Positions 35,354 to 55,106 of a stretch of 64,000 nucleotides of DNA are shown here, piece by piece; position 1 is the stretch's first letter, and every line of letters begins with the position of its first letter. The stretch comes from a virus. Taxonomy: Duplodnaviria; Caudoviricetes. A program made the position numbers and the translations under genes. The notes below the pieces were generated by a model that did no database searches, was not told the origin of the DNA, and saw only the letters and a program-made list of their open reading frames with translations. The stretch is from positions 1 through 64,000 of IMG/VR virus record IMGVR_UViG_3300014205_000003, one strand, 5' to 3'.

Positions 35354-36327
35354 CAAAGCTTCAGACTCTTATTTATCTTCAAGGCTACCTGAGCAAGGAA
35401 GCTTTCGACTTCAATCCTTTTGGCGATCGCAAGGGGCGTGCACAAGATGCTAAGGCAAATGCTCGTACTGCTAAGATCAATGCAGCTGAAGCTAAGTCGA
35501 ATCGTCAGAGCTACTTGACTGCTAATGATCTAGGGCTTCAAGATGCTTTAGCTAATCGTGCAACAAATAAAGGTGTGTATGGTCAGATGACTGCAGCGGC
35601 AAATGCTAAAGCTGCTCAGACGCCTGCACCGACTCCTGCTGCTTCTCCAGAGCCTATGCAAGATCCTGCGATTACTCGAGCACAGCAAGTAGCTGCCGCT
35701 AAGAAGATGTCTCCCTATATGCGCGGAAGCACAATGCCTCGGGCTCAACAGCTTAATCAAGCTGCTCCAACTGTTGCACAAGCAACTCCTACAGCTACTC
35801 CTAAGACTGTTGTTGATCCTAATCCGATGAATACAGGAAATGTAGGCGAGAAGCAACGCACAGCACTTTTACAAGAAGAACAACCAAACATGAATCGGTT
35901 AGCTATTCAAACAAAAGCACCTGCAATGCCTCAGTATCCTAGGAAAAATGTTGTTCCTACCTCGCCTAGACCTACGAGAGCTCAAGCGGCGGCACTGAAG
36001 GGTGAGGTAGCTAGTATTAAAGCAGCGCAGACAGCCCAAACACAACAACCTGCAGCAACTCCTTCGTTTAGACCTGTTGCAGCTGTTCCCCAAGGACGTG
36101 CGGCGTATACAGCAAGTAACAAAGATGATATGGGTCAAATTAGAGCAGGTACTGCTACAATGAATCCCGAATGGCTAAAAAGACCGTCTGGGGATTTTTC
36201 AAATAGTCAAAAGCGTCGAGATCTGATTAGAAATCAGCTGGTTGCTTTGCAAAGAGGGAAACGGACTCCAGATATTAACCAAGTTGCAAAAAATACGGGT
36301 GTTAACCTGCTTCTTCCGGCACTATAA
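35350..36327 (+). CDS. Leader-family protein (basic, A/P/Q-rich)
   Basis: MTKLQTLIYLQGYLSKEA. Confidence 0.65.
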   Translation: MTKLQTLIYLQGYLSKEAFDFNPFGDRKGRAQDAKANARTAKINAAEAKSNRQSYLTANDLGLQDALANRATNKGVYGQMTAAANAKAAQTPAPTPAASPEPMQDPAITRAQQVAAAKKMSPYMRGSTMPRAQQLNQAAPTVAQATPTATPKTVVDPNPMNTGNVGEKQRTALLQEEQPNMNRLAIQTKAPAMPQYPRKNVVPTSPRPTRAQAAALKGEVASIKAAQTAQTQQPAATPSFRPVAAVPQGRAAYTASNKDDMGQIRAGTATMNPEWLKRPSGDFSNSQKRRDLIRNQLVALQRGKRTPDINQVAKNTGVNLLLPAL

Positions 36328-37271
36328 TGACATCTCTCTCACATCTCCTAGAGAAAGACGCAGCTCCTGTTGCGGGTCGAGGTCCATTGAAGACCGTCCT
36401 GCGACAAGCTGTTGATCATCCAGACAATCACGCTGTCTCTGAAGACCAGTTGATTGACCTGCATGACTATCCACGCCATCGCCAAGACATCTTCGACAAA
36501 ACCCTCAAAGGTGTCGAAGCCGCCTTCCCAAAAGCCAATACTAAACATACGTTGACAGTAACTGATCTGCACTACGATGGTCCTGATCACTACTCCAAAG
36601 AAGACTACAAGAACGCGATTCTTGAACGACGTTCGATGACTCGCAAGCTTGTAGGAAAGTACGTCCTTACAGACAACGCAACAGGTAAAGTGATTTCGAC
36701 TAGTGGTCGTAAAACCATAATGAACGTTCCTTACTTGACAGATCAAGGGACGTTTTTGCGTAACGGCACAGAATCTGTGATACCTAGGCAGCTTAGGCTT
36801 CAACCAGGAGTCTATACGCATATGACTTCTGATGGATATCCAGAAGCACAGTTCAACGTAAAGCCCGGAACGGGAAGTGGCTTTCGTACTTATCTAGATC
36901 CTGAGACGTCTGTCTTCTATATGACTACACGCGGACGCAAAATTCCCCTTTATCCCCTGATGCAAGCCCTAGGAGTCGATGACAGATCTTTGCAGGCTAC
37001 TTGGGGAGATGAGATCTTCAAGGCCAATCAGGAGATGCGTACGAGTTCTCATGCTGCTCGCTGGCTGAACGAAATGAATACTAAGCTTGCTCCGAAGGTT
37101 GTAGATGTTCCTGAAGTGGAAGAACAGGATGTGAATCCTGGCGACGAAGAACTGCCTACTTCCAATTATCAGGAGACACCTGACGATGAACTCACAGATC
37201 TTACAGTTGGAGAAGCTGATCGATTACCTTCTACCGTTTCTGGAGATCAAGGAATCCTCGAACAACCCTAA
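36327..37271 (+). CDS. RNA polymerase beta subunit, N-terminal fragment
   Basis: [31 protein letters not shown] aligns with RpoB IPLMT..[34 protein letters not shown]. Confidence 0.85.
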   Translation: [314 protein letters not shown]

Positions 37272-40970: not shown

Positions 40971-43900
40971 ATGCCCGATGATCTCAAAACACCCATCGTT
41001 GAACCAACTCCTAACTACATCAAGTCCTACTTCGAGAAAATGGAGCTCGATCCTGAATCTGTCCAGTCAACACTCGGTCGTCCGCATACTCATGCGACAG
41101 CCGATGCGATCCTCGACGCCACCTCCAAAGTCCTCAAGCTCTCCCGCCGAGAAGTAGATCCAGACGACAGAGACTCTCTGGAGTTTCAAACTGTCCACGA
41201 TGCTTCCGACTTCCTTCCAGACAAAGTACGTATGGACCAAGGTGGAATATTGCGGAAAGCTCTGTGGAAGCTTACAAACAAGAACGGAGACTTCTCTAAG
41301 GTTCCTGCAGGACTCTTGGACAAACACAATGACAACCTGTTCAACGTCAGTGGTTTAAGCCAAGGCATTGAAGAAACGTCAAATTTCGAGATGTATGATC
41401 AGAACACTCGAGTTCATCGAATGGGTGAAGGCGCTCTTCCTAGCATTGATGCCATTCCTTTGGAAGCACGTGCAGTCTCTCCAAGTTACTTAGGTTTAAT
41501 AGATTGCGTCCGCACCCCCGAAAGTTTGAAGGTAGGTGTTGACCTCAAATTTGCGCGTAATGTGAAGAAGGGTCCTAACAACCTCGTCTATACCAAGATG
41601 CTGGATAAAGATGGGAAAGAGGTTTGGGTATCTTCTAGAGATTTACCTCGGTCGATCGTTATGTTTCCAGACTCTGGAGATAAAAACGATAAGTTCGTGC
41701 CTGCTATTGTTAGAGGACGTACTTTGGAGTATGTGGATAGGAAAACTGTAAATTACACGCTTCCTTCTGGAGATGACATGTTCTCAGAGGGCGGTAATCT
41801 TACTCCTAGTGTGTCTGGTGTAAAAGGTATGCGCTTGTTGCTTGCAGGCAAATATCCTGCGGCAGCACTGTCTATTACAGGACGTGAAGCTCCACTAGTA
41901 CAGACAATGTCTTCTGATGGAACTCCTACGTCCGATCGTATAGGAAAACACTTGGGGCCTTCCTATTCGTCTATTGAGGGTACTGTTACTAAGGTTACTC
42001 CTACAGAGATCTGGATCAAAGATGCTAAGGGTAAGATTGAAAAGAAAGATCTGTACAATGATCATCCGTACATGCGTAAATCCTATCTGCACAACACTCC
42101 TGAAGTAGAAGTCGGGCAGATGGTTAAAGCTGGAGACATTCTAGCTTCCAGCAACTTTACAGACTCTAAGGGTAATGCGGCCTTAGGTGCAAACGTACGT
42201 ATGGCTTACATGCCGCACGATGGTTTGACCTTTGAGGATTCCTCAATCATATCAGAGTCTTTGGCTAAGCGCATGACTTCGTTACATATGTACAACGAAG
42301 ATATTGACACAGATGACGCTACTCGCTTGGATAAGAAGACCTTCATGCAGATGTTCCCTGGAAAGTACTCTAAGGAACAACTGGCTAAGCTGGATGCCAA
42401 AGGCATGGTATTGCCGGGAGTAGTCCTCAATAGTGGCGATCCTATGTTCTTAGGAATTAAGGAAACTCCTCCGGGTCCTGGTAATATGGGACGTGGCTCT
42501 GTTCGACAGGTTGTCAAGAACTGGGAATACGACACTCCCGGAACTGTTGCGTACGCAGCTAAGACTAAGGGAGGCTTTACTGCCTTTGTAAAGACTCAGG
42601 AACCTTTTCAAGAGGGTGGAAAGATTGCTACTCCATATGGAAGCAAGTCAGTAGTTGCTAGAATCTATCCCGACGATCAGATGCCTAGGGACAATCAAGG
42701 ACGTCCTGTAGAGTGGATCATGAGTCCTTTTGGCGTTCAAAGCAGAACGAATCCAGCACTTATTCCTGCAGGAGCTTTAGGTAAGATTGCTGCCAAGACA
42801 GGTATTCCTTACAACCTTAGAGGCTTCAATCCCGGCGAGGTTAAGAAATTTGCAGACGAAGAGCTTGCTAAACATAACATGACCGATAAAGAAGACGTGT
42901 ACGATCCTGTGCGCAAAGTAACAATTCCAGGCATCTATGTTGGAAACGTTTACGCCTACAAGATGCAGCAAACTGCTGAGAATAAAGGACATGCACGTTC
43001 TGTAGGTACGTATAGTGCTGAGGATGTGCCCCTTAAGGGTGGTTCTAGCGGAAGTAAGCATGTGGGCGACATGGAGTGGTTTGGTTTACTTTCTCACAAT
43101 GCAATTGCGAATATCTATGATATGAAGCAAGTTAAAGGTCGTCGCAATGATGACTACTGGCGTCAGGTTAAGCTTGGACAGACTCCTAGTGTTCCCGGAA
43201 CTCCTGTAGTCTATTCCAAGTTCAAAGACTTGCTCAAAGCTGCTGGTGTAAATCTGTCGGAAGGTAAGGACACCACGTCTATCTTTGGTATGACTAACGC
43301 ACAAGCGGAGAAGTTGACAGGTAATCGAGAACTTGACTCTGCTTCTACCTTCAACGCGAATACCTTCAAGCCAATTCCTGGAGGTCTCTTCGATTCTGAT
43401 AAGACAGGTTCGTTGGGGGATGGTAGAGGCTGGAGCTACTACAGTCTTCCAGAACCTTTGCCCAATCCTGTAATGGAAGAGCCTATTCGAGCTTTGCTTG
43501 GAGTTACTAAGAAAGACTTCGACAAAGTGATCTCTGGAGAACTTCCTCTCAACGGTAAGTATGGTGGACAGGCTATTACAGAATACCTGAAGCGTGTCAA
43601 TCTGGATGATGTGATGAACACAGCTTCAGAGACCATTCGCAGTGGCAGTAAGTCTAAGCGAGATGCCGCTGTTAAGGTTTATGGCTACGCCAGTGCCATG
43701 AAGAAGCAGGGTGTACGCCCTGAAGAGTTCATGATGACTCGTGTACCTGTCCTGCCTCCTGCTTGGCGTCCTATTACTGCTAGTGGAGCTCGTACGATGG
43801 TTGCTGATCAGAACTATACGTATCGAGCATTGTTCGACAGTATTCAGGACTACAAGGATTCCATGAGTCTTCCTGAGGATCTTCGACAGACAGCTCGACA

Positions 43901-44663
43901 GAACATGTACAACAGCTACAGAAGTCTCGTAGGCACTACTGATCCTACACAGGAGAAGCTGGTACAGAAGAACGTTGGCGGTTTGCTGGACAGTCTGCTT
44001 GGCAAATCCTCGCCAAAACTGGGATTCTTTCAAAGGCGTGTAATTGGTTCTAACATTGACATGGGTGGTTTAGGGGTTGTTACCTTGAACTCCTCTCTCA
44101 AATTGAACGAAATAGGTTTACCAGAAGCGACTGTCTGGGACTTGTACAGTCCTTTCATTGTTCGTAAGCTTGTTCAGCAGGGTATGCCAGCTATGCAGGC
44201 AGCTGAAGCAATCAAGAGTAAGACAGAACAAGCAGGTAAAGCTCTACAGGGTATTATGAAAGAGCGACCTGTACTGATGAATCGTGCGCCTACCAACCAC
44301 AAGTACAGCATTATGGCTGTGTGGCCTAGAATGACTAAGGGACATTCTGTACAGGTTAATCCTACCCTTATGGGTCCCTACACAATGGACCTGGACGGCG
44401 ACGTTGCAAGTTATTCTGTTCCAGTGAGTAATAACGCTGTCAAGGAAGCAATTGCGCGTATGCTTCCTGAGAAGAATCTGCTGTCTGTTTCAAATGACAA
44501 GCCGATGTATGTTCCGAGTCAGGAGTTTGCTATGGGTGGCTGGACGATGTCCAAGGAGCCTAACAGGGACAAGCCTGTACGTTTCAACACTTGGCAGGAT
44601 GCTGTGAAGGCTTACAAGACTGGGCAGATTAAGGTAGATACTCCTGTAATTGTAGGACGTTGA
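40971..44663 (+). CDS. RNA polymerase beta(C-terminal)-beta'(N-terminal) fusion with catalytic DxDGD
   Basis: TPES, GGKIATPYGSKSVV, SRTN, GDMEW (beta); VPVLPPAWRP, LMNRAPTNH, TMDLDGD (beta'). Confidence 0.92.
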   Translation: MPDDLKTPIVEPTPNYIKSYFEKMELDPESVQSTLGRPHTHATADAILDATSKVLKLSRREVDPDDRDSLEFQTVHDASDFLPDKVRMDQGGILRKALWKLTNKNGDFSKVPAGLLDKHNDNLFNVSGLSQGIEETSNFEMYDQNTRVHRMGEGALPSIDAIPLEARAVSPSYLGLIDCVRTPESLKVGVDLKFARNVKKGPNNLVYTKMLDKDGKEVWVSSRDLPRSIVMFPDSGDKNDKFVPAIVRGRTLEYVDRKTVNYTLPSGDDMFSEGGNLTPSVSGVKGMRLLLAGKYPAAALSITGREAPLVQTMSSDGTPTSDRIGKHLGPSYSSIEGTVTKVTPTEIWIKDAKGKIEKKDLYNDHPYMRKSYLHNTPEVEVGQMVKAGDILASSNFTDSKGNAALGANVRMAYMPHDGLTFEDSSIISESLAKRMTSLHMYNEDIDTDDATRLDKKTFMQMFPGKYSKEQLAKLDAKGMVLPGVVLNSGDPMFLGIKETPPGPGNMGRGSVRQVVKNWEYDTPGTVAYAAKTKGGFTAFVKTQEPFQEGGKIATPYGSKSVVARIYPDDQMPRDNQGRPVEWIMSPFGVQSRTNPALIPAGALGKIAAKTGIPYNLRGFNPGEVKKFADEELAKHNMTDKEDVYDPVRKVTIPGIYVGNVYAYKMQQTAENKGHARSVGTYSAEDVPLKGGSSGSKHVGDMEWFGLLSHNAIANIYDMKQVKGRRNDDYWRQVKLGQTPSVPGTPVVYSKFKDLLKAAGVNLSEGKDTTSIFGMTNAQAEKLTGNRELDSASTFNANTFKPIPGGLFDSDKTGSLGDGRGWSYYSLPEPLPNPVMEEPIRALLGVTKKDFDKVISGELPLNGKYGGQAITEYLKRVNLDDVMNTASETIRSGSKSKRDAAVKVYGYASAMKKQGVRPEEFMMTRVPVLPPAWRPITASGARTMVADQNYTYRALFDSIQDYKDSMSLPEDLRQTARQNMYNSYRSLVGTTDPTQEKLVQKNVGGLLDSLLGKSSPKLGFFQRRVIGSNIDMGGLGVVTLNSSLKLNEIGLPEATVWDLYSPFIVRKLVQQGMPAMQAAEAIKSKTEQAGKALQGIMKERPVLMNRAPTNHKYSIMAVWPRMTKGHSVQVNPTLMGPYTMDLDGDVASYSVPVSNNAVKEAIARMLPEKNLLSVSNDKPMYVPSQEFAMGGWTMSKEPNRDKPVRFNTWQDAVKAYKTGQIKVDTPVIVGR

Positions 44664-44821
44664 TAATCTCTTATGAGGTTGTCGATGACTTCATTTGATA
44701 TTCCTAGATCTGTTCAGCATGATACGTATTCCTGTGGAGCTCATGCTGTAAGAAGTCTGTTGTGGTACTTCAAGCGTCCTGTTCATTAGTTGTCGAAATA
44801 GTTAATAAGCTGTAAGAAGCA

Positions 44822-44850
44822 TTGACAACTTTGACTTGGTGGTCTATATT
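44822..44850 (+). promoter_or_regulatory. Sigma70-type promoter for tnpB (leaderless transcript likely)
   Basis: TTGACA-N17-TATATT, ATG 7 nt downstream. Confidence 0.7.
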
Positions 44851-45958
44851 AAGATTATGATCAGAACCGTAAATATAGACCTAAATCATCTGACGCAACA
44901 TAAGCGGTCTAGCATTGCTGCGTTACTTACTGCATATAGAAGTGCTGTAAACTTCTACTGCAAAAGCCTATGGAACACTCCAGGGAAACTAGATGCAGTT
45001 ACAGAGAAACGTCTTGTAAACTCTCGTCTGACTGCCCGATATCGTTGCACTGCTCTCAAGACAGCTCTCGCAATTGTTATTACAACCCGCAGAGCTCTGA
45101 AGGTAACTAAGAAGTACGGATCAATTCCAGTTCTTACAGGTATGGTTTCTCTGGATCAGAAGTTCGTTACAGTTGAAAAAGGTAAGCAAAGCTTCGACTA
45201 CGTACTCAAACTCTCCTCGCTGTCTTCTGGAAACCGGATCACAATTCCTTTCAACTCTCACAAGAGACTTCAGTATTGGCTATCGAAGCCAGGAGCGGTC
45301 CTGAAACAAGCTTGTCAGATCTCTGAAGACAGGATGAAACTCTATGTAGAGTTTCCAGACGAAGCTCCTCGCACAACAGGACGTGTCCTAGGTGTAGACG
45401 TCGGAATAAACAAACTGCTGACTACTTCGGACAATGTCTTCTTAGGAACAACTTGGAAAGCTCTGTCTCTGAAGATCAGACGCTGCAAAGTTGGAAGTGC
45501 TGGAAGACAACGAGCATACAGAGAACGTGATCAGTTTATTAATCGTACTGTCAATCTTCTTCCTTGGTCAGAACTTCGAGCAATCGGAATTGAAGACCTC
45601 AAAGGTATGAAGACAGGTAAAAGTAAGAATCGAGGAAAAGCATTTCGTAAAGCACTGGCACCATGGCTGTACCGTCGACTGCTCAACCGCATAGAGGTTA
45701 AAGCAGAGGAGAACCGTGTTCGTCCTCTGCGTGTACCTGCGGCCAATAGTTCACGGGAATGTCCACGTTGTGGAATGGTGTCGAAGCTGAATCGCACAGG
45801 AGAGAACTTTGTTTGTATTCGTTGCGGCCACGCTGCGGATGCCGACTACGTCGGAGCAAGCAATGTTCTCGCTCGTACTATGCAGATCCTAGGGAGCTAG
45901 AGTCCCCTAGTGCCAAAAGCTGGAATTGTTAGCGCAAGTTAACTATTACGGTAACTCT
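44827..45958 (+). mobile_element. Non-autonomous TnpB element (IS200/IS605 superfamily)
   Basis: Starts after TTGAC and ends at ACTCT; removal restores the interrupted reading frame. Confidence 0.7.
44857..45900 (+). CDS. tnpB: TnpB RNA-guided endonuclease
   Basis: GVDVG, IEDL, CPRCG..CIRCG and DAD; RuvC triad intact. Confidence 0.9.
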   Translation: MIRTVNIDLNHLTQHKRSSIAALLTAYRSAVNFYCKSLWNTPGKLDAVTEKRLVNSRLTARYRCTALKTALAIVITTRRALKVTKKYGSIPVLTGMVSLDQKFVTVEKGKQSFDYVLKLSSLSSGNRITIPFNSHKRLQYWLSKPGAVLKQACQISEDRMKLYVEFPDEAPRTTGRVLGVDVGINKLLTTSDNVFLGTTWKALSLKIRRCKVGSAGRQRAYRERDQFINRTVNLLPWSELRAIGIEDLKGMKTGKSKNRGKAFRKALAPWLYRRLLNRIEVKAEENRVRPLRVPAANSSRECPRCGMVSKLNRTGENFVCIRCGHAADADYVGASNVLARTMQILGS

Positions 45959-46229
45959 CTCCCAAGCCCTCTGAATGTCTAGACTACTCCTAAGAACAAT
46001 TCCTGTATGCTTCAAACCACTTGCTGTAAGTGCTCTAAGCAGACACACCCACCTTATCCTTCTTCCGTCGTGCAACATAGCTTCTTCATAGCCCTCCAAT
46101 ATGGTAATAGGACGCTAAATTAGTCTATGTTGTTGATTCAAGCAATGGCAGGGATACAGAGTTCAGTCACTTAGAGTGGTTTCGGTACGAATACGATCAC
46201 ATACGAGTGTTTGCGATAAAGAATTAACT

Positions 46230-47156
46230 ATGACCGAAGCAGACCTTCAAAAACTTGCGGCAATCTCTTGGGGAAAACTTCTGCACGAAGGTTCAGAAGG
46301 GCAGAATGCTTCTAGAGATGCTATCGCAAAACTCTTGCAGATCATGCGCAAGCATACGCCTACAACTTTTCTTCCTCACAAATATCGCTTGCCTAATCTG
46401 TTTAACAAAGCTCCTGACTTCTTCTTTCCTGGTTGGTCAGAGCGAAAAGTTCTAGAGCATCCTGTAACGCAGAAAGTCCTTCAAGCGACTGTAGGTAAAG
46501 TTCCAGGTATGTCCTTGCCTATCTCTAATCTGCCAAACAGGCTTGAGCAGGTTTCTGGACTACTGTCAGATGCCGCTAAGCAGTATACGGCTCCTCTCAG
46601 TAGAGGTGTTAACAAAGCTGTATCTCTTCTTCCTCGTAAGACTCAAAAGATTACACCTCTCAAGGTGGACGATTTGAAGATTACCGACGATGTATCGAAG
46701 CTGGACAAGACAGGTTCAGACGCTTGCAGTCTGTTGCTTCAGAAGCTCGCAGAGAAAAACGATGAGTGGACTGCAGGCGATGTAGCTCTAACAGGCGCGG
46801 CTGGAAGTCTAGCCGCTCCTATCTATGCAGGGTCTGAATATGCTACAATGAAGCACTTGGCCAAGAAGCAACCTGTTGCTCAGGGTTTGATGAATCCTAA
46901 CAAGTGGGCACATGTAATTGCTAAGTTGATCAAAGCCCAGAAAGATGTTGAAGTTTCTGACAAGACACGTGCAACGTATATAAAACAGTGGAACAATGCG
47001 GCTAAGAGTACTTGGAGAAATGGTAGAGACGTTATGCTTACTGCAGAAGGTGTAAATCCTAAGCTGGTTAAAGGCGGTAAGTACAGTTTGATGATTCTTC
47101 CTGCAGTACTTACTGCTTTAGCCATTCAGAGTAAGCATAATGACAAGTTAAGTTAA
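46230..47156 (+). CDS. KxA-family protein
   Basis: LQKLAA, LDKTGS, LQKLAE; C-terminal hydrophobic helix. Confidence 0.6.
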   Translation: MTEADLQKLAAISWGKLLHEGSEGQNASRDAIAKLLQIMRKHTPTTFLPHKYRLPNLFNKAPDFFFPGWSERKVLEHPVTQKVLQATVGKVPGMSLPISNLPNRLEQVSGLLSDAAKQYTAPLSRGVNKAVSLLPRKTQKITPLKVDDLKITDDVSKLDKTGSDACSLLLQKLAEKNDEWTAGDVALTGAAGSLAAPIYAGSEYATMKHLAKKQPVAQGLMNPNKWAHVIAKLIKAQKDVEVSDKTRATYIKQWNNAAKSTWRNGRDVMLTAEGVNPKLVKGGKYSLMILPAVLTALAIQSKHNDKLS

Positions 47157-48572: not shown

Positions 48573-50405
48573 ATGCCTGCTCAAACAGTAGGTCAGTACC
48601 TAATTCAGAATATCCTTCCAGCAGACGTCTACGACGGCTCTCCGCTGGACAAAAAGGGTATTGCTAAAGTCTTCTCCCAGTTGGCTGAAAAGTATCCAGA
48701 CAAGTACGTAGATATTCTGGATGACTACAACCAAGCTGCTGGAGACGCTGTAGCACGTTATGGTGGCGTTGCTTCTATTGGTCTCTCAGACTTAGACATT
48801 CCAGAACCTGTTAAGATTCATCGTGATGCTCTCCGTCTGAAAGTCAAAGCTATTCAGCAGAGTCCTACGCTTACAGGTAAACAGAAGAATGACGCTGTAG
48901 TCAAGTTGATGCTCTCAGAAGCAGACAACATTCGCAAGATGACTACAGAAGAGTCCATGAAAAATGGCTCACACTTCGGTCTTTCAGCTTCCAAAGGCTT
49001 CAGAGGAAATCCGTTGCAGACTACGCAGATGATTTATGGAGATCTTCTCGTAGCCGACCATAAAGATCGGCCAATCCCTGTTGCAGGTCTGCATGGTTAT
49101 GGCGAAGGTGTAACCCCTGCTGAGTACTTCGCAGGCTCGTATGGTGCTCGTAAAGGACAGGTCTCAGTACAGATTGCTACTGCTAAGTCTGGATTCTTAG
49201 GTAAAGAAATATCCTACGCAGCCCAACGTCAAGTAATTACCGGAGACGACTGCGGAGCTAAGAATGTAGGCATAACAGTCAATGGAGATAATCCTGAGAT
49301 CATAGGAAGTGTTCTAGCCAAGACTACAAAAGGTATCCCCGCAGGAACAGTTATTACCAAGAACAATCTTCCAGACCTTGAAGGTACTAAAGTTCGTATC
49401 CGTTCTCTCAGTACTTGTCAGATGCCTAACGGAGTTTGTAAGATGTGCGCAGGCAAGAGAGAACAGGGAAAGTTCCCCGACACAGGGTCTTACGTTGGAA
49501 TCACGTCTGCCAGAAGTTTGTCAGAACCCTTTACGCAATCGGCACTTAGTTACAAGCATACTGGAGGAGTTGCAAAGGGTAAAATTGATCGTGGTCTTCA
49601 AGGCTTTGCAGAGGTTGAGCAGTTCTTCAATGCTCCTGAGAACTTCAAAGGTGTTGCTCTGCAGTCTACCAAGGATGGGATTGTTCAGAACATCATCAAA
49701 GCTCCTCAAGGGGGCTCGTACGTATTCATTGACGGTCAGAAGCACTACGCTGATCCTGACATGACATTGACAGTTAAGAAAGGTGATTCTGTAGAAGCTG
49801 GAGATGTTCTTTCCGATGGAACTCCTCATCCAGGCCTTGTAGCTCACTATAAGGGATTGGGAGCTGGACGCGCTTATTTCATTGATAAGCTTGGCCAGAT
49901 CTTAGAGAAGAATGGTATTCCTGGGCACATGAGACACGTCGATTCTATGGCTAAAGCCTTCTACGACAGAGTACGTATAACTAATCCAGAAGGCTTCATG
50001 GGATACAACCCTGACGACGTTGTTCCCTATACAGAGATCCAAAAGGATTATAGCCCACGGAAAGGTACTATCTCTGTTGCTCCTAAACAAGCTGTCAATC
50101 AATACTTAGAACGTCCTGTTCTGCACTACACCATTGGAACACGTGTTACTCCCAATGTGATCAAAGAGATGAACGAAGAAGGTGTTCCTGCAATTGAAGT
50201 CCATAAAGACCTTCCAGACTTCGAACCTGAAGTCTCAAGGATTATGGATATCCAAGCATCTGATCCAGATTGGCAGACACAGCTTGCGGGCTTCAATCTA
50301 AGGAAGAGTTTGCTGAAGTCTGTTACACACGGCTCCACAAGTACTACAGCTGGTACTTCCTATGTTCCCAAGTTAGTCAATAGTACGGTTCTGCAAAATG
50401 CTTAA
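48573..50405 (+). CDS. RNA polymerase beta' subunit, C-terminal part
   Basis: Bridge helix EYFAGSYGARKG..TAKSGF; Zn site DDCG/RS..TC...GVCKMC; trigger loop SLSEPFTQ..HTGG. Confidence 0.9.
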   Translation: MPAQTVGQYLIQNILPADVYDGSPLDKKGIAKVFSQLAEKYPDKYVDILDDYNQAAGDAVARYGGVASIGLSDLDIPEPVKIHRDALRLKVKAIQQSPTLTGKQKNDAVVKLMLSEADNIRKMTTEESMKNGSHFGLSASKGFRGNPLQTTQMIYGDLLVADHKDRPIPVAGLHGYGEGVTPAEYFAGSYGARKGQVSVQIATAKSGFLGKEISYAAQRQVITGDDCGAKNVGITVNGDNPEIIGSVLAKTTKGIPAGTVITKNNLPDLEGTKVRIRSLSTCQMPNGVCKMCAGKREQGKFPDTGSYVGITSARSLSEPFTQSALSYKHTGGVAKGKIDRGLQGFAEVEQFFNAPENFKGVALQSTKDGIVQNIIKAPQGGSYVFIDGQKHYADPDMTLTVKKGDSVEAGDVLSDGTPHPGLVAHYKGLGAGRAYFIDKLGQILEKNGIPGHMRHVDSMAKAFYDRVRITNPEGFMGYNPDDVVPYTEIQKDYSPRKGTISVAPKQAVNQYLERPVLHYTIGTRVTPNVIKEMNEEGVPAIEVHKDLPDFEPEVSRIMDIQASDPDWQTQLAGFNLRKSLLKSVTHGSTSTTAGTSYVPKLVNSTVLQNA

Positions 50406-51460: not shown

Positions 51461-51624
51461 TTAGAGACTTCTCCTATAAGAGCTTCGACAGCCTTTAAAG
51501 AAACCTTACGGCGTTTTGACGGGGTGACGTAACCTTTAAGATGTCCAGAGTCAAACCAGTTACGAACTGTATCAGGATGAACTCCTAGCATCTTAGCTGC
51601 TTTGACGATTGATATGAATTCCAT
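51457..51624 (-). CDS. 55-aa MerR/excisionase-type HTH protein (like the IS607 TnpA N-domain); not in ORF track
   Basis: MEFISIVKAAKMLGVHPDTVRNWFDSGHLKGYVTPSKRRKVSLKAVEALIGEVSK; GTGA overlap with tnpB. Confidence 0.8.
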   Translation of the reverse strand: MEFISIVKAAKMLGVHPDTVRNWFDSGHLKGYVTPSKRRKVSLKAVEALIGEVSK

Positions 51625-53976: not shown

Positions 53977-55106
53977 AAACTGAAAAACAACGATCTTGTA
54001 TACTGTTATACAAGGGAGTAATTAATGATTCGTAGAGTGCAAATGTCTTTAGAGTCGTCCAATAGAAGCAAACTACAGAAACTGGATACTGTGGAGGTAG
54101 AGGCTTTACGTGTTTTAAACCTTTCGATTGATTACTTATGGCAATATCCGTCTACAAGAAAATTTGATAAACCCCCCGCATTTCAGACGTGGCTCTCTTA
54201 CCGTTTTTGTCAATGTCTTTTTATTCAAGCCTTTAATGTTCTTAAAAAACTGCGAGCACGAAAAAATAAGGCTAAAAAAGTATCAAAACCAATCATCAAG
54301 AATAAAACGTTTGATGTGACTAAAAACATCTGTACGTTTTACAGAGCAGAAAACTCGTTTGATTTTTGGATAAAAGTTTACTGTCTGGGAAATAAAATCA
54401 ATCTCAATATCCCATCAAGAAAACATAAGCAGTTTCTTAAGTATAGTCAGAGTGGCTGGAAACTCTTAAACAGTTCCAGTCTGCGTAAAATAAATGGTAA
54501 ATGGTTCCTAGATGTCTTCTTTGAGAAAGCCCCACCTGCACCCGCTACAGGGACTTCCATAGGTCTTGATTGTGGGTATAAGAAACTCCTAGCGTCTTCA
54601 GATCAGAAAACATACGATGTAGGTATGGAGGTCGTTTATAAAAAGATAGTCAGAAAGAAGCAAGGGTCTAAGGCTTTTAAGAGAGCTCTTATAGAACGTA
54701 ATCAGAAGATCAACCAATCTGTTAAGCTACTAGACTTGAAGAACATTCAAGAACTCGTAGTGGAAGATCTCAAAGACGTTAAGAAGAGTTCTAAAGGAAA
54801 GATCCGTAAACAGTTTATGAACAAGCTGCAACGCTGGAGCTATCCAAAAGTTTTGGACAAACTTCAGATGGTCAGCGAGGAAGTTGGAGTCAAACTCCTT
54901 AAGGTGAGTCCAGCTTACACCTCGCAGACATGCAGCTTGTGCGGAGCGGTAGACAAACTGTCCCGTAAGGGAGAGTCATTCTGTTGTACCGCGTGTGGAA
55001 TGAAGATGGACGCAGACTTTAATGCGGCCAAAAACATTCTGATGAGGGGAGTTTATAGTCCCCCTTCCGTGACAAACCAATTAGAGATTATCTAATGCGT
55101 AACTAT
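53977..55106 (+). mobile_element. Non-autonomous TnpB element
   Basis: Follows CAGAC; left hairpin CTTGTATA..TATACAAG; ends at ACTAT; empty site reads in frame. Confidence 0.65.
54025..55095 (+). CDS. tnpB: TnpB RNA-guided endonuclease (paralog of 50402-51460)
   Basis: GLDCG, VVEDL, Zn finger and DADFNAA. Confidence 0.92.
   Translation: MIRRVQMSLESSNRSKLQKLDTVEVEALRVLNLSIDYLWQYPSTRKFDKPPAFQTWLSYRFCQCLFIQAFNVLKKLRARKNKAKKVSKPIIKNKTFDVTKNICTFYRAENSFDFWIKVYCLGNKINLNIPSRKHKQFLKYSQSGWKLLNSSSLRKINGKWFLDVFFEKAPPAPATGTSIGLDCGYKKLLASSDQKTYDVGMEVVYKKIVRKKQGSKAFKRALIERNQKINQSVKLLDLKNIQELVVEDLKDVKKSSKGKIRKQFMNKLQRWSYPKVLDKLQMVSEEVGVKLLKVSPAYTSQTCSLCGAVDKLSRKGESFCCTACGMKMDADFNAAKNILMRGVYSPPSVTNQLEII

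Follow-up and report, generated by a model that had tools for sequence, protein, structure and literature searches.

A peptidase-like gene probably broken by a tnpB-only element and a short-repeat inversion in a large phage genome

Introduction

Phage genomes can contain invertible segments, such as the G segment of Mu and the C segment of P1, with Gin and Cin. Anabaena cyanophages occur as isomers that differ in segments flanked by inverted repeats of 500 to 700 bp, and in cyanophage A-1(L) a tnpB gene is situated inside the invertible module, beside the repeat (10.64898/2026.02.14.705889). Two reports present TnpB itself as an RNA-guided homing nuclease whose cleavage targets are vacant sites (PMC10055086, PMC10690162). 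The window analyzed here comprises the first 64 kb (64,000 nucleotides [nt]) of IMG/VR record IMGVR_UViG_3300014205_000003, a 188,069-bp viral metagenome assembly with direct terminal repeats, and contains a tnpB-only element of the IS200/IS605 family nested within a short inverted repeat. The surrounding sequence, 44685-46227, is probably the pseudogene of one accessory gene of ~136 amino acids (aa) that was broken by this element and by an inversion across the short repeat. This is ordinary gene decay through a mobile element and a small inversion, and it involves no new mechanism.

The element has the hallmarks of the tnpB-only (IS1341 type) members of IS200/IS605: a TnpB with the RuvC Asp/Glu/Asp residues and a zinc finger, a predicted scaffold that overlaps the 3' end of tnpB and forms a pseudoknot at the last base of the element, a guide that would be templated by the flank, TTGAC immediately upstream of the left end, a subterminal hairpin at that end, and the lack of a target duplication. 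In contrast to IS200/IS605 elements as known, it resides in a phage rather than a cell, and in a phage without TnpA anywhere; a mere 30 nt separate its left end from the start codon, which the hairpin encloses; its paralogs in the same genome carry a 55-aa HTH_17 gene that this copy lacks; and the element appears to have been inverted together with both of its flanks. The resemblance to invertible segments is that DNA bounded by an inverted repeat stands in the opposite orientation. Whereas the known segments have recombinase sites or 500- to 700-bp repeats and two functional states, the repeat here is 8 to 11 bp long and situated in coding sequence, the phage encodes no recombinase, and the gene is broken in either orientation.

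Reconstruction of the broken gene

A preliminary description of the window had proposed that excising 44827-45958 and inverting 44781-46108 restores a gene, and the geometry of this reconstruction was reproduced exactly. The inverted repeat AGCGTCCT (44773-44780) and its reverse complement AGGACGCT (46109-46116) have the coordinates assigned to them, tnpB is inside the segment that they bound, and the joined pieces A (+), B (-), C (-) and D (+), in this order, form a stop-free open reading frame (ORF) of 136 codons ending in TAA (Table 1). The repeat can be extended to 10 of 11 bases. The inverted segment of 1328 bp consists of 46 bp of the gene, the element, and another 150 bp of the gene.

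The rebuilt ORF begins with its own Shine-Dalgarno sequence (GAGG) and an ATG 21 nt after the stop codon of an RNA polymerase (RNAP) gene, and its TAA precedes the ATG of the downstream gene (46230) by 2 nt. As the DNA stands now, the frames of all four pieces are closed 0 to 3 codons past the inversion junctions: the frame of piece A meets a stop 2 codons after 44780 (44787-44789), that of piece B 2 codons upstream of 46108, and that of piece C 3 codons past 44781, while that of piece D is closed by a TAG at 46108-46110, exactly at the junction. Such closures match the expectation for gene fragments that were cut at those points.

That all three junctions are in frame, as originally claimed, holds, but the claim concealed one free parameter, the left boundary of the element. 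The frame of piece C is open for 18 codons into the element, such that any left boundary in one of three phases gives an ORF, and the left boundary therefore needed evidence that is independent of the frame. This evidence, described below, places the element at 44827-45958, in agreement with the original proposal, and no tuning is needed for an in-frame B|C join.

An 8-bp inverted repeat between the two flanks is expected by chance, occurring in 53 to 60% of dinucleotide shuffles. When the element ends were fixed, 0.063% of 100,000 dinucleotide shuffles contained the 8-bp repeat and also an all-junction ORF of at least 125 aa, and in 0.024% this ORF reached at least 136 aa. When the left boundary was left free, an all-junction ORF of at least 125 aa was reached in 0.3% of 20,000 shuffles and one of 136 aa in 0.1%. 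The repeat combined with an ORF across all three junctions thus exceeds chance; the repeat alone does not.

The ancestral gene would have encoded a stand-alone papain-fold, C39-like cysteine-peptidase domain. It was probably destroyed by two lesions that were independent of each other. One would be the insertion of the 1132-bp tnpB-only element 3' of TTGAC, without target duplication, which would have split the gene between pieces B and C. The other would be the inversion of the 1328-bp segment between the 8-bp (10/11) inverted repeat inside the gene itself, most likely through illegitimate or short-homology recombination or through template switching during replication, and not by a dedicated invertase. 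The gene is presumably non-functional now, with at most a stub of 34 to 38 aa that could be made. The order of events given in the preliminary description, antisense insertion followed by inversion, and the reverse one, in which an inversion was followed by a co-directional insertion, yield identical DNA. The five relatives of this TnpB that were fetched are all co-directional with their neighbors, and in this genome, 3 of the 7 tnpB copies are sense and 4 are antisense.

Table 1. Features of the locus and the two flanking polymerase genes (positions in the window)
Feature	Coordinates	Strand	Description
Piece A	44685-44780	+	Codons 1-32; Gln11...Cys17-Gly motif; GAGG 6 nt before ATG
Piece C	44781-44826	-	15 codons + 1 base, V-N-A-S-Y-S-L-L-T-I-S-T-T-N-E; putative C39 His strand
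Piece B	45959-46108	-	50 codons; putative region after the Cys helix in C39 domains
Piece D	46109-46227	+	2 bases + 38 codons + TAA
Inverted repeat, left arm	44773-44783		8 perfect bases 44773-44780, 10/11 to 44783; inversion junction 44780|44781
Inverted repeat, right arm	46106-46116		Inversion junction 46108|46109
Candidate target-adjacent motif TTGAC	44822-44826	+	Directly 5' of the element
tnpB-only IS200/IS605-family element	44827-45958	+	1132 bp; no target duplication
Left-end hairpin, GGTCTATATT / AATATAGACC	44841-44881	+	Arms 44841-44850 / 44872-44881, 10/10 complementary; encloses the tnpB start codon
tnpB	44857-45900	+	347 aa, full length; PF07282, E = 5.9e-15
Predicted 3' guide-RNA (omega RNA) scaffold	45889-45958	+	Hairpin around the tnpB stop
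Flank predicted to template the guide	45959-45978	+	Guide CTCCCAAGCCCTCTGA; antisense of the last codons of piece B
RNAP beta/beta'-N fusion gene	40971-44663		1230 aa; Pfam Rpb2_6 + Rpb1_2
RNAP beta'-C gene	48573-50405		Pfam Rpb1_5

Similarity of the rebuilt protein to C39 peptidases

The name that best suits the rebuilt gene is C39-like: its N-terminal half is firm, its C-terminal half is unproven, and it lacks the canonical His. The preliminary description had also called it C39-like; the assignment stands for the N-terminal half, with Gln11 and Cys17, and not for the C-terminal half, which is not significantly similar.

A custom profile hidden Markov model of Peptidase_C39, built from 29 PF03412 domains and with 133 to 137 positions, scores the joined protein at 18.6 bits (E = 6.7e-5); the curated cut-off of the official model is 22 bits. 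The joined protein ranked first among ~1300 sequences (all ORFs from the six frames of the phage genome, together with 200 shuffles and permutations), and the next real ORF scored 6.6 bits. The HMMER alignment, which covers residues 7-69, spans the A|B junction, and hhalign aligned residues 3-131 with positions 2-127 of the 137-position template at a probability of 91.9%. Gln11 and Cys17-Gly18 are on the Q...CG columns of the profile, which correspond to the N-terminal Gln-x5-Cys-Gly of the family, with the oxyanion Gln and the nucleophile Cys at the beginning of a helix.

The contribution of each piece is evident from the hhalign controls. Piece A alone scored 30.4 (~11.5 bits in HMMER), and A followed by B scored 40.9 to 41.4, the A|B adjacency adding ~10 score units. 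Orders in which A and B were not adjacent scored 30.9 to 35.4, and shuffling C+D behind A+B left the score unchanged at 41.4. Random 50-aa pieces of phage proteins placed after A gave 31.6 +/- 1.6, with none of 330 reaching 40.9. In HMMER, A+B scored 19.8 bits, and 17 of 5000 random continuations scored as high (P = 0.0034).

When aligned singly, the pieces fall in the expected order along the domain (A at 2-31, B at 22-74, and C+D at 86-127). Pieces C and D are presumed to be parts of one fold with A and B; piece C is the weakest part of the reconstruction. Piece D alone matches the proper C-terminal third (template 96-127), and in a greedy alignment, Asp107 and Gly111 are on the columns of the "DPxxG" turn, which holds the third catalytic residue (Asp) of the family, the score of this C-terminal segment (15.3) being one that 4% of random segments reach. 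The catalytic His that the preliminary description had failed to find is missing: Ser86 occupies the His column, and there is no His between residues 68 and 115. Loss of the His before the breakage of the gene and loss after it are indistinguishable.

PF03412 comprises the double-glycine leader peptidases of bacteriocin ABC exporters, which have a papain fold. The rebuilt protein resembles them in length (136 aa versus 133 to 137 profile positions) and in having an N-terminal Gln-x5-Cys-Gly followed by a helix and then a Gly-containing helix-loop. Unlike them, it stands alone: its gene is surrounded by RNAP genes and unannotated ORFs of 308 and 225 aa, and no ABC transporter or leader-peptide gene is nearby. 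It differs further in the Ser86 at the position of the catalytic His and in its C-terminal half.

An alternative classification, as a peptidase of the Ulp1/XopD type (clan CE), was rejected. The resemblance is limited to a local Q...YSCG at residues 11-18, straight after the start codon; in clan CE the order is His, Asp, Gln, Cys, and the Cys is near the C terminus of the domain, whereas that of the rebuilt gene is near the N terminus. In library searches with piece A, the only match was to the Cys motif of XopD, and it was weak (E = 1.2 with phmmer against the PDB; E = 0.077 in NCBIfam).

The tnpB element and its ends

Both ends of the element are supported without reference to the reading frame of the broken gene. 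The element contains a TnpB in which the RuvC residues D181, E246, and D328/D330 and the zinc-finger cysteines C302/C305/C320/C323 are invariant in the alignment. In the scaffold, the loop AGAGT (45899-45903) pairs with ACTCT (45954-45958), the terminal bases of the element, as a pseudoknot. There are seven tnpB genes in this genome, and in six of them the 5-mer in the hairpin loop is complementary to the 5-mer at which similarity ends. Loop and terminus covary through three pair types: AGAGT/ACTCT in the present copy (c1), ATAGT/ACTAT in four copies, and ATGGT/ACCAT in the copy c185. The relatives used for the right end come from other metagenomes and are 56 to 70% identical in TnpB; two of them, L195 and L197, share the terminus ...AACTCT, after which their flanks diverge from this copy and from each other. 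Because the pseudoknot covaries and the terminus recurs in relatives, the right end is fixed at 45958. No Rfam match to a known RNA family or a group I intron was found in the region. The 20 nt that follow are predicted to template the guide, based on their place right after the right end and the known architecture of TnpB elements.

The left end is placed at 44827 because the spacing of TTGAC recurs in relatives in the absence of similarity further upstream. TTGAC is exactly 30 nt before the tnpB ATG both in c1 and in L204, a relative with 52% identity; L195 instead has TTGGC 32 nt from the ATG, and L196 has TTGTA 29 nt from it; there is no upstream similarity among these four elements. TTGAC is likely the target-adjacent motif (TAM), and it resembles TTGAT, the TAM of ISDra2 TnpB. 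A second TTGAC, at 44831-44835, is also in phase and would add three residues to the rebuilt protein; it is the less likely boundary because it is just 5 nt from the hairpin.

The left-end hairpin is identical in L195 (70% relative; ~1746-1786). In L196 (62%; ~1667-1707), the left arm has a C>G change and the right arm the compensating G>C, and Asp is replaced with His. The structure of the hairpin appears to be under selection in its own right, because the compensated change alters the amino acid. The DNA around the left end also contains a promoter-like site, TTGACA-17-TATATT (44822-44850), which is near the sigma-70-type consensus (11 of 12 matches). Its -35 box consists of TTGAC plus A44827, and its -10 box is inside the left arm of the hairpin. 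A transcript from this site would begin at or beside the tnpB ATG and may thus be leaderless. With its TnpB, guide scaffold, left-end hairpin, and promoter-like site, the element seems complete and still capable of RNA-guided homing nuclease activity.

The locus provides a cleanly delimited natural TnpB-only element of a large phage, with its left end, candidate TAM, hairpin, guide-RNA terminus, and predicted guide, which makes it useful for mining compact RNA-guided nucleases. If the gene was broken as reconstructed, tnpB-only elements break accessory genes even in phage genomes without any transposase, and the locus is a worked example of how two-step scars, consisting of an insertion and a short-repeat inversion, can be read from sequence alone.

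Pattern searches of IMG/VR and of GTDB genomes returned no near relatives of this TnpB or only distant archaeal ones, and a protein-database search returned relatives up to 70% identical. Those designated L195-L207 (50 to 70% identical) are in phage-like contigs from other metagenomes, where they are intergenic and always co-directional with their neighbors; one of these insertions was seen in several samples.

Evidence against the reconstruction and alternative explanations

Several results count against a pseudogene of a C39-like peptidase. C39 peptidases have a catalytic His on the central strand, ~70 to 75 residues after the Cys; the rebuilt protein has none there, and the alignment in this part is without statistical support. 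Only A and A+B carry a significant signal, and the profile score does not rise when C and D are included. Even for A+B, several tnpB windows attain similar HMMER scores, and the N terminus of the next gene (46230-46370; 308 aa, no Pfam family), when placed after A, has an hhalign score of 42.3 versus 40.9 for B, although the blind local-window scan in which it emerged gave it a far less confident alignment (Sum_probs of 47 versus 70 for B). The homology support for the A|B junction (P of ~0.003 to 0.006) is not decisive. The official Pfam and NCBIfam models do not match C39 in the separate pieces, and a custom profile of PF13529 (Peptidase_C39_2), built from 31 domains, gives the rebuilt protein nothing above background. 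Codon usage of the rebuilt gene is between that of phage genes and that of stop-free off-frames and is likewise not decisive; foreign genes such as the tnpB copies also have low codon-usage scores.

The searches for homologues point the same way. The preliminary description had suggested looking for an intact allele in relatives, and none was recovered from any collection searched. Piece B had no homologue among 5.8 billion clusters (longer proteins) or, with full HMMER, among 1.84 billion representatives, and it was not found in 40 whole related phage records. Back-translated patterns retrieved no homologue from IMG/VR and JGI metagenome contigs, and tblastn and phmmer with the rebuilt protein retrieved nothing from 80 syntenic loci and the contig of the closest RNAP relative. 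Twenty related phages gave no match to PF03412. A 29-mer of piece A detected no second contig among JGI contigs, blastn against phage GenBank records gave no match, and a protein atlas returned scores of only 0.81 and no homologue. In the collections searched, the peptidase-like gene is an orphan. The official PF13529 model detects nothing in the six frames of the genome at E <= 10.

There is also an odd match within piece C, where the minus strand of 44786-44805 agrees at 15 of 20 positions with the terminal 20 nt of the element (45939-45958, plus strand). The match belongs to a 31-nt imperfect inverted repeat (71%; 44788-44818 / 45926-45956), which is the longest of its kind in the region. 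About two such matches are expected per genome, and the probability of finding one beside the element is a few per thousand, before correcting for looking. The match is unexplained and may be due to chance. The other tnpB copies have no comparable inverted repeat.

These results bear most directly on the possibility that the reconstruction is fortuitous, with the flanks being ordinary non-coding or decayed DNA in which piece A would be the sole true remnant of a gene, if there is one at all. The high incidence of 8-bp repeats in shuffled flanks, the failure to find a homologue of any piece, the intermediate codon usage, the lack of a profile score gain from C and D, and the ability of an unrelated neighboring sequence to mimic the hhalign contribution of B are all compatible with such an origin. 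Against them stand a shuffle probability of 2.4e-4 to 6e-4 for the whole pattern, with boundaries set on independent evidence, the stops 0 to 3 codons past every inversion junction, the natural start and stop contexts of the ORF, and the A|B adjacency (P of ~0.003), which is evidence unrelated to stop codons; we consider a fortuitous reconstruction improbable. It is slightly less probable again that the contig is chimeric or represents a minority arrangement, the true or major genome being uninverted. The record is a metagenome assembly, and some phage stocks contain the two isomers of segments flanked by inverted repeats side by side, but those of the cyanophages depend on repeats of 500 to 700 bp and not of 8 bp (10.64898/2026.02.14.705889). 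For an assembly artefact, moreover, a repeat of 8 to 11 bp is far below the k-mers of assemblers, and two reciprocal chimeric junctions at one repeat would presumably be required.

That the segment is a programmed module, whose flipping would set, for example, whether tnpB and its guide RNA run with or against the one-directional transcription of the phage, is very unlikely. In its favor, the inverted segment consists almost entirely of the complete element, the phage genes are all on the plus strand such that orientation would matter for read-through, and tnpB copies occur in both orientations; the four antisense copies, however, are evidently tolerated. Neither a resolvase/invertase (PF00239) nor a tyrosine recombinase (PF00589) nor a Y1 transposase (PF01797) was found in the genome, the repeat has 8 perfect bases without extended symmetry like that of a recombination site, and it is inside the coding sequence of the broken gene. 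PF01797 (TnpA) had no match in the 188-kb genome at E <= 1, as would be expected of a member of the tnpB-only subgroup. The suggestion in the preliminary description that this could be a still-invertible switch thus fares poorly: the genome is without a recombinase, the repeat is 8 to 11 bp, and flipping the segment back leaves the element in the gene. There is a similarly slight probability of recurrent element-linked inversion, in which a tnpB-only element flips, along with its TAM and guide sides, between short repeats. Such flipping would set whether TnpB and the guide RNA are produced by read-through or from the promoter formed by TAM plus left end, and both orientations would coexist in the phage population.

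The match within piece C raises a further possibility, that C is the remnant of a second, oppositely oriented TnpB right end, in which case the ancestor would have consisted of A+B with a loss, and D would be unrelated. Both the 15/20 match with its 31-nt inverted repeat and the low probability, uncorrected for looking, that it adjoins the element by chance speak for this architecture. A left boundary at ~44786, however, brings an immediate stop after B and an 82-aa product, which is too short for the domain; the other tnpB copies are without such a repeat; comparison with relatives puts the left boundary at the TTGAC that precedes the ATG by 30 nt; and D alone aligns to the proper third of the domain. 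We regard this architecture as very improbable, and a single gene broken by the element and the short-repeat inversion as the probable origin of 44685-46227.

The mimicry of piece B by the next gene is, in addition, a warning about short helical segments in tests of this type.

Genomic setting and other tnpB copies

Throughout the genome, long ORFs are nearly all on the plus strand. The remnant of the peptidase-like gene is located between two large RNAP genes (Table 1). The fusion protein encoded by the first of these has more than 1000 relatives in phage contigs of ~190 to 220 kb, the closest of which are just 58 to 60% identical. Among these relatives, the genes between the two polymerase genes vary from contig to contig, and the genes downstream of the RNAP gene are not conserved; the three ORFs downstream of 44685-46227 have no counterpart in 80 related loci. 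Because the intervening genes differ among relatives and the ORFs that follow are without counterparts, the peptidase-like gene is considered part of a variable region. Synteny is unable to supply an intact gene because the genes after RNAP are not conserved.

Five of the seven tnpB genes in this genome are directly preceded by an ORF of 54 to 67 aa with an HTH_17 (MerR-like) domain (PF12728, E = 1.2e-8). One of these ORFs is in the window (51463-51624, minus strand), and the others are elsewhere in the genome, at 102368-102532, 143461-143628, and 185778-185978 (all minus) and at 147933-148097 (plus). The two tnpB copies without an HTH_17 ORF are the one described here and one at 54025. The HTH-bearing copies share a left-end motif, TGCTATATTAG, that resembles an extended -10 box. 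The possibility that the flanks of the present element derive from the HTH gene found ahead of other tnpB copies was rejected, as there is no similarity.

An inorganic pyrophosphatase (PF18823) adjoins the RNAP gene, or is fused to RNAP, in several relatives; it is unrelated to the broken gene. In most relatives (L004, L005-L084, contigs of P0003, P0012, P0019, and others), the RNAP beta/beta' fusion is ~1460 aa long, whereas in this phage the RNAP is split, with the N terminus of beta encoded by a separate gene of 314 aa (36327-37271). The fusion carries intein or LAGLIDADG domains in many relatives.

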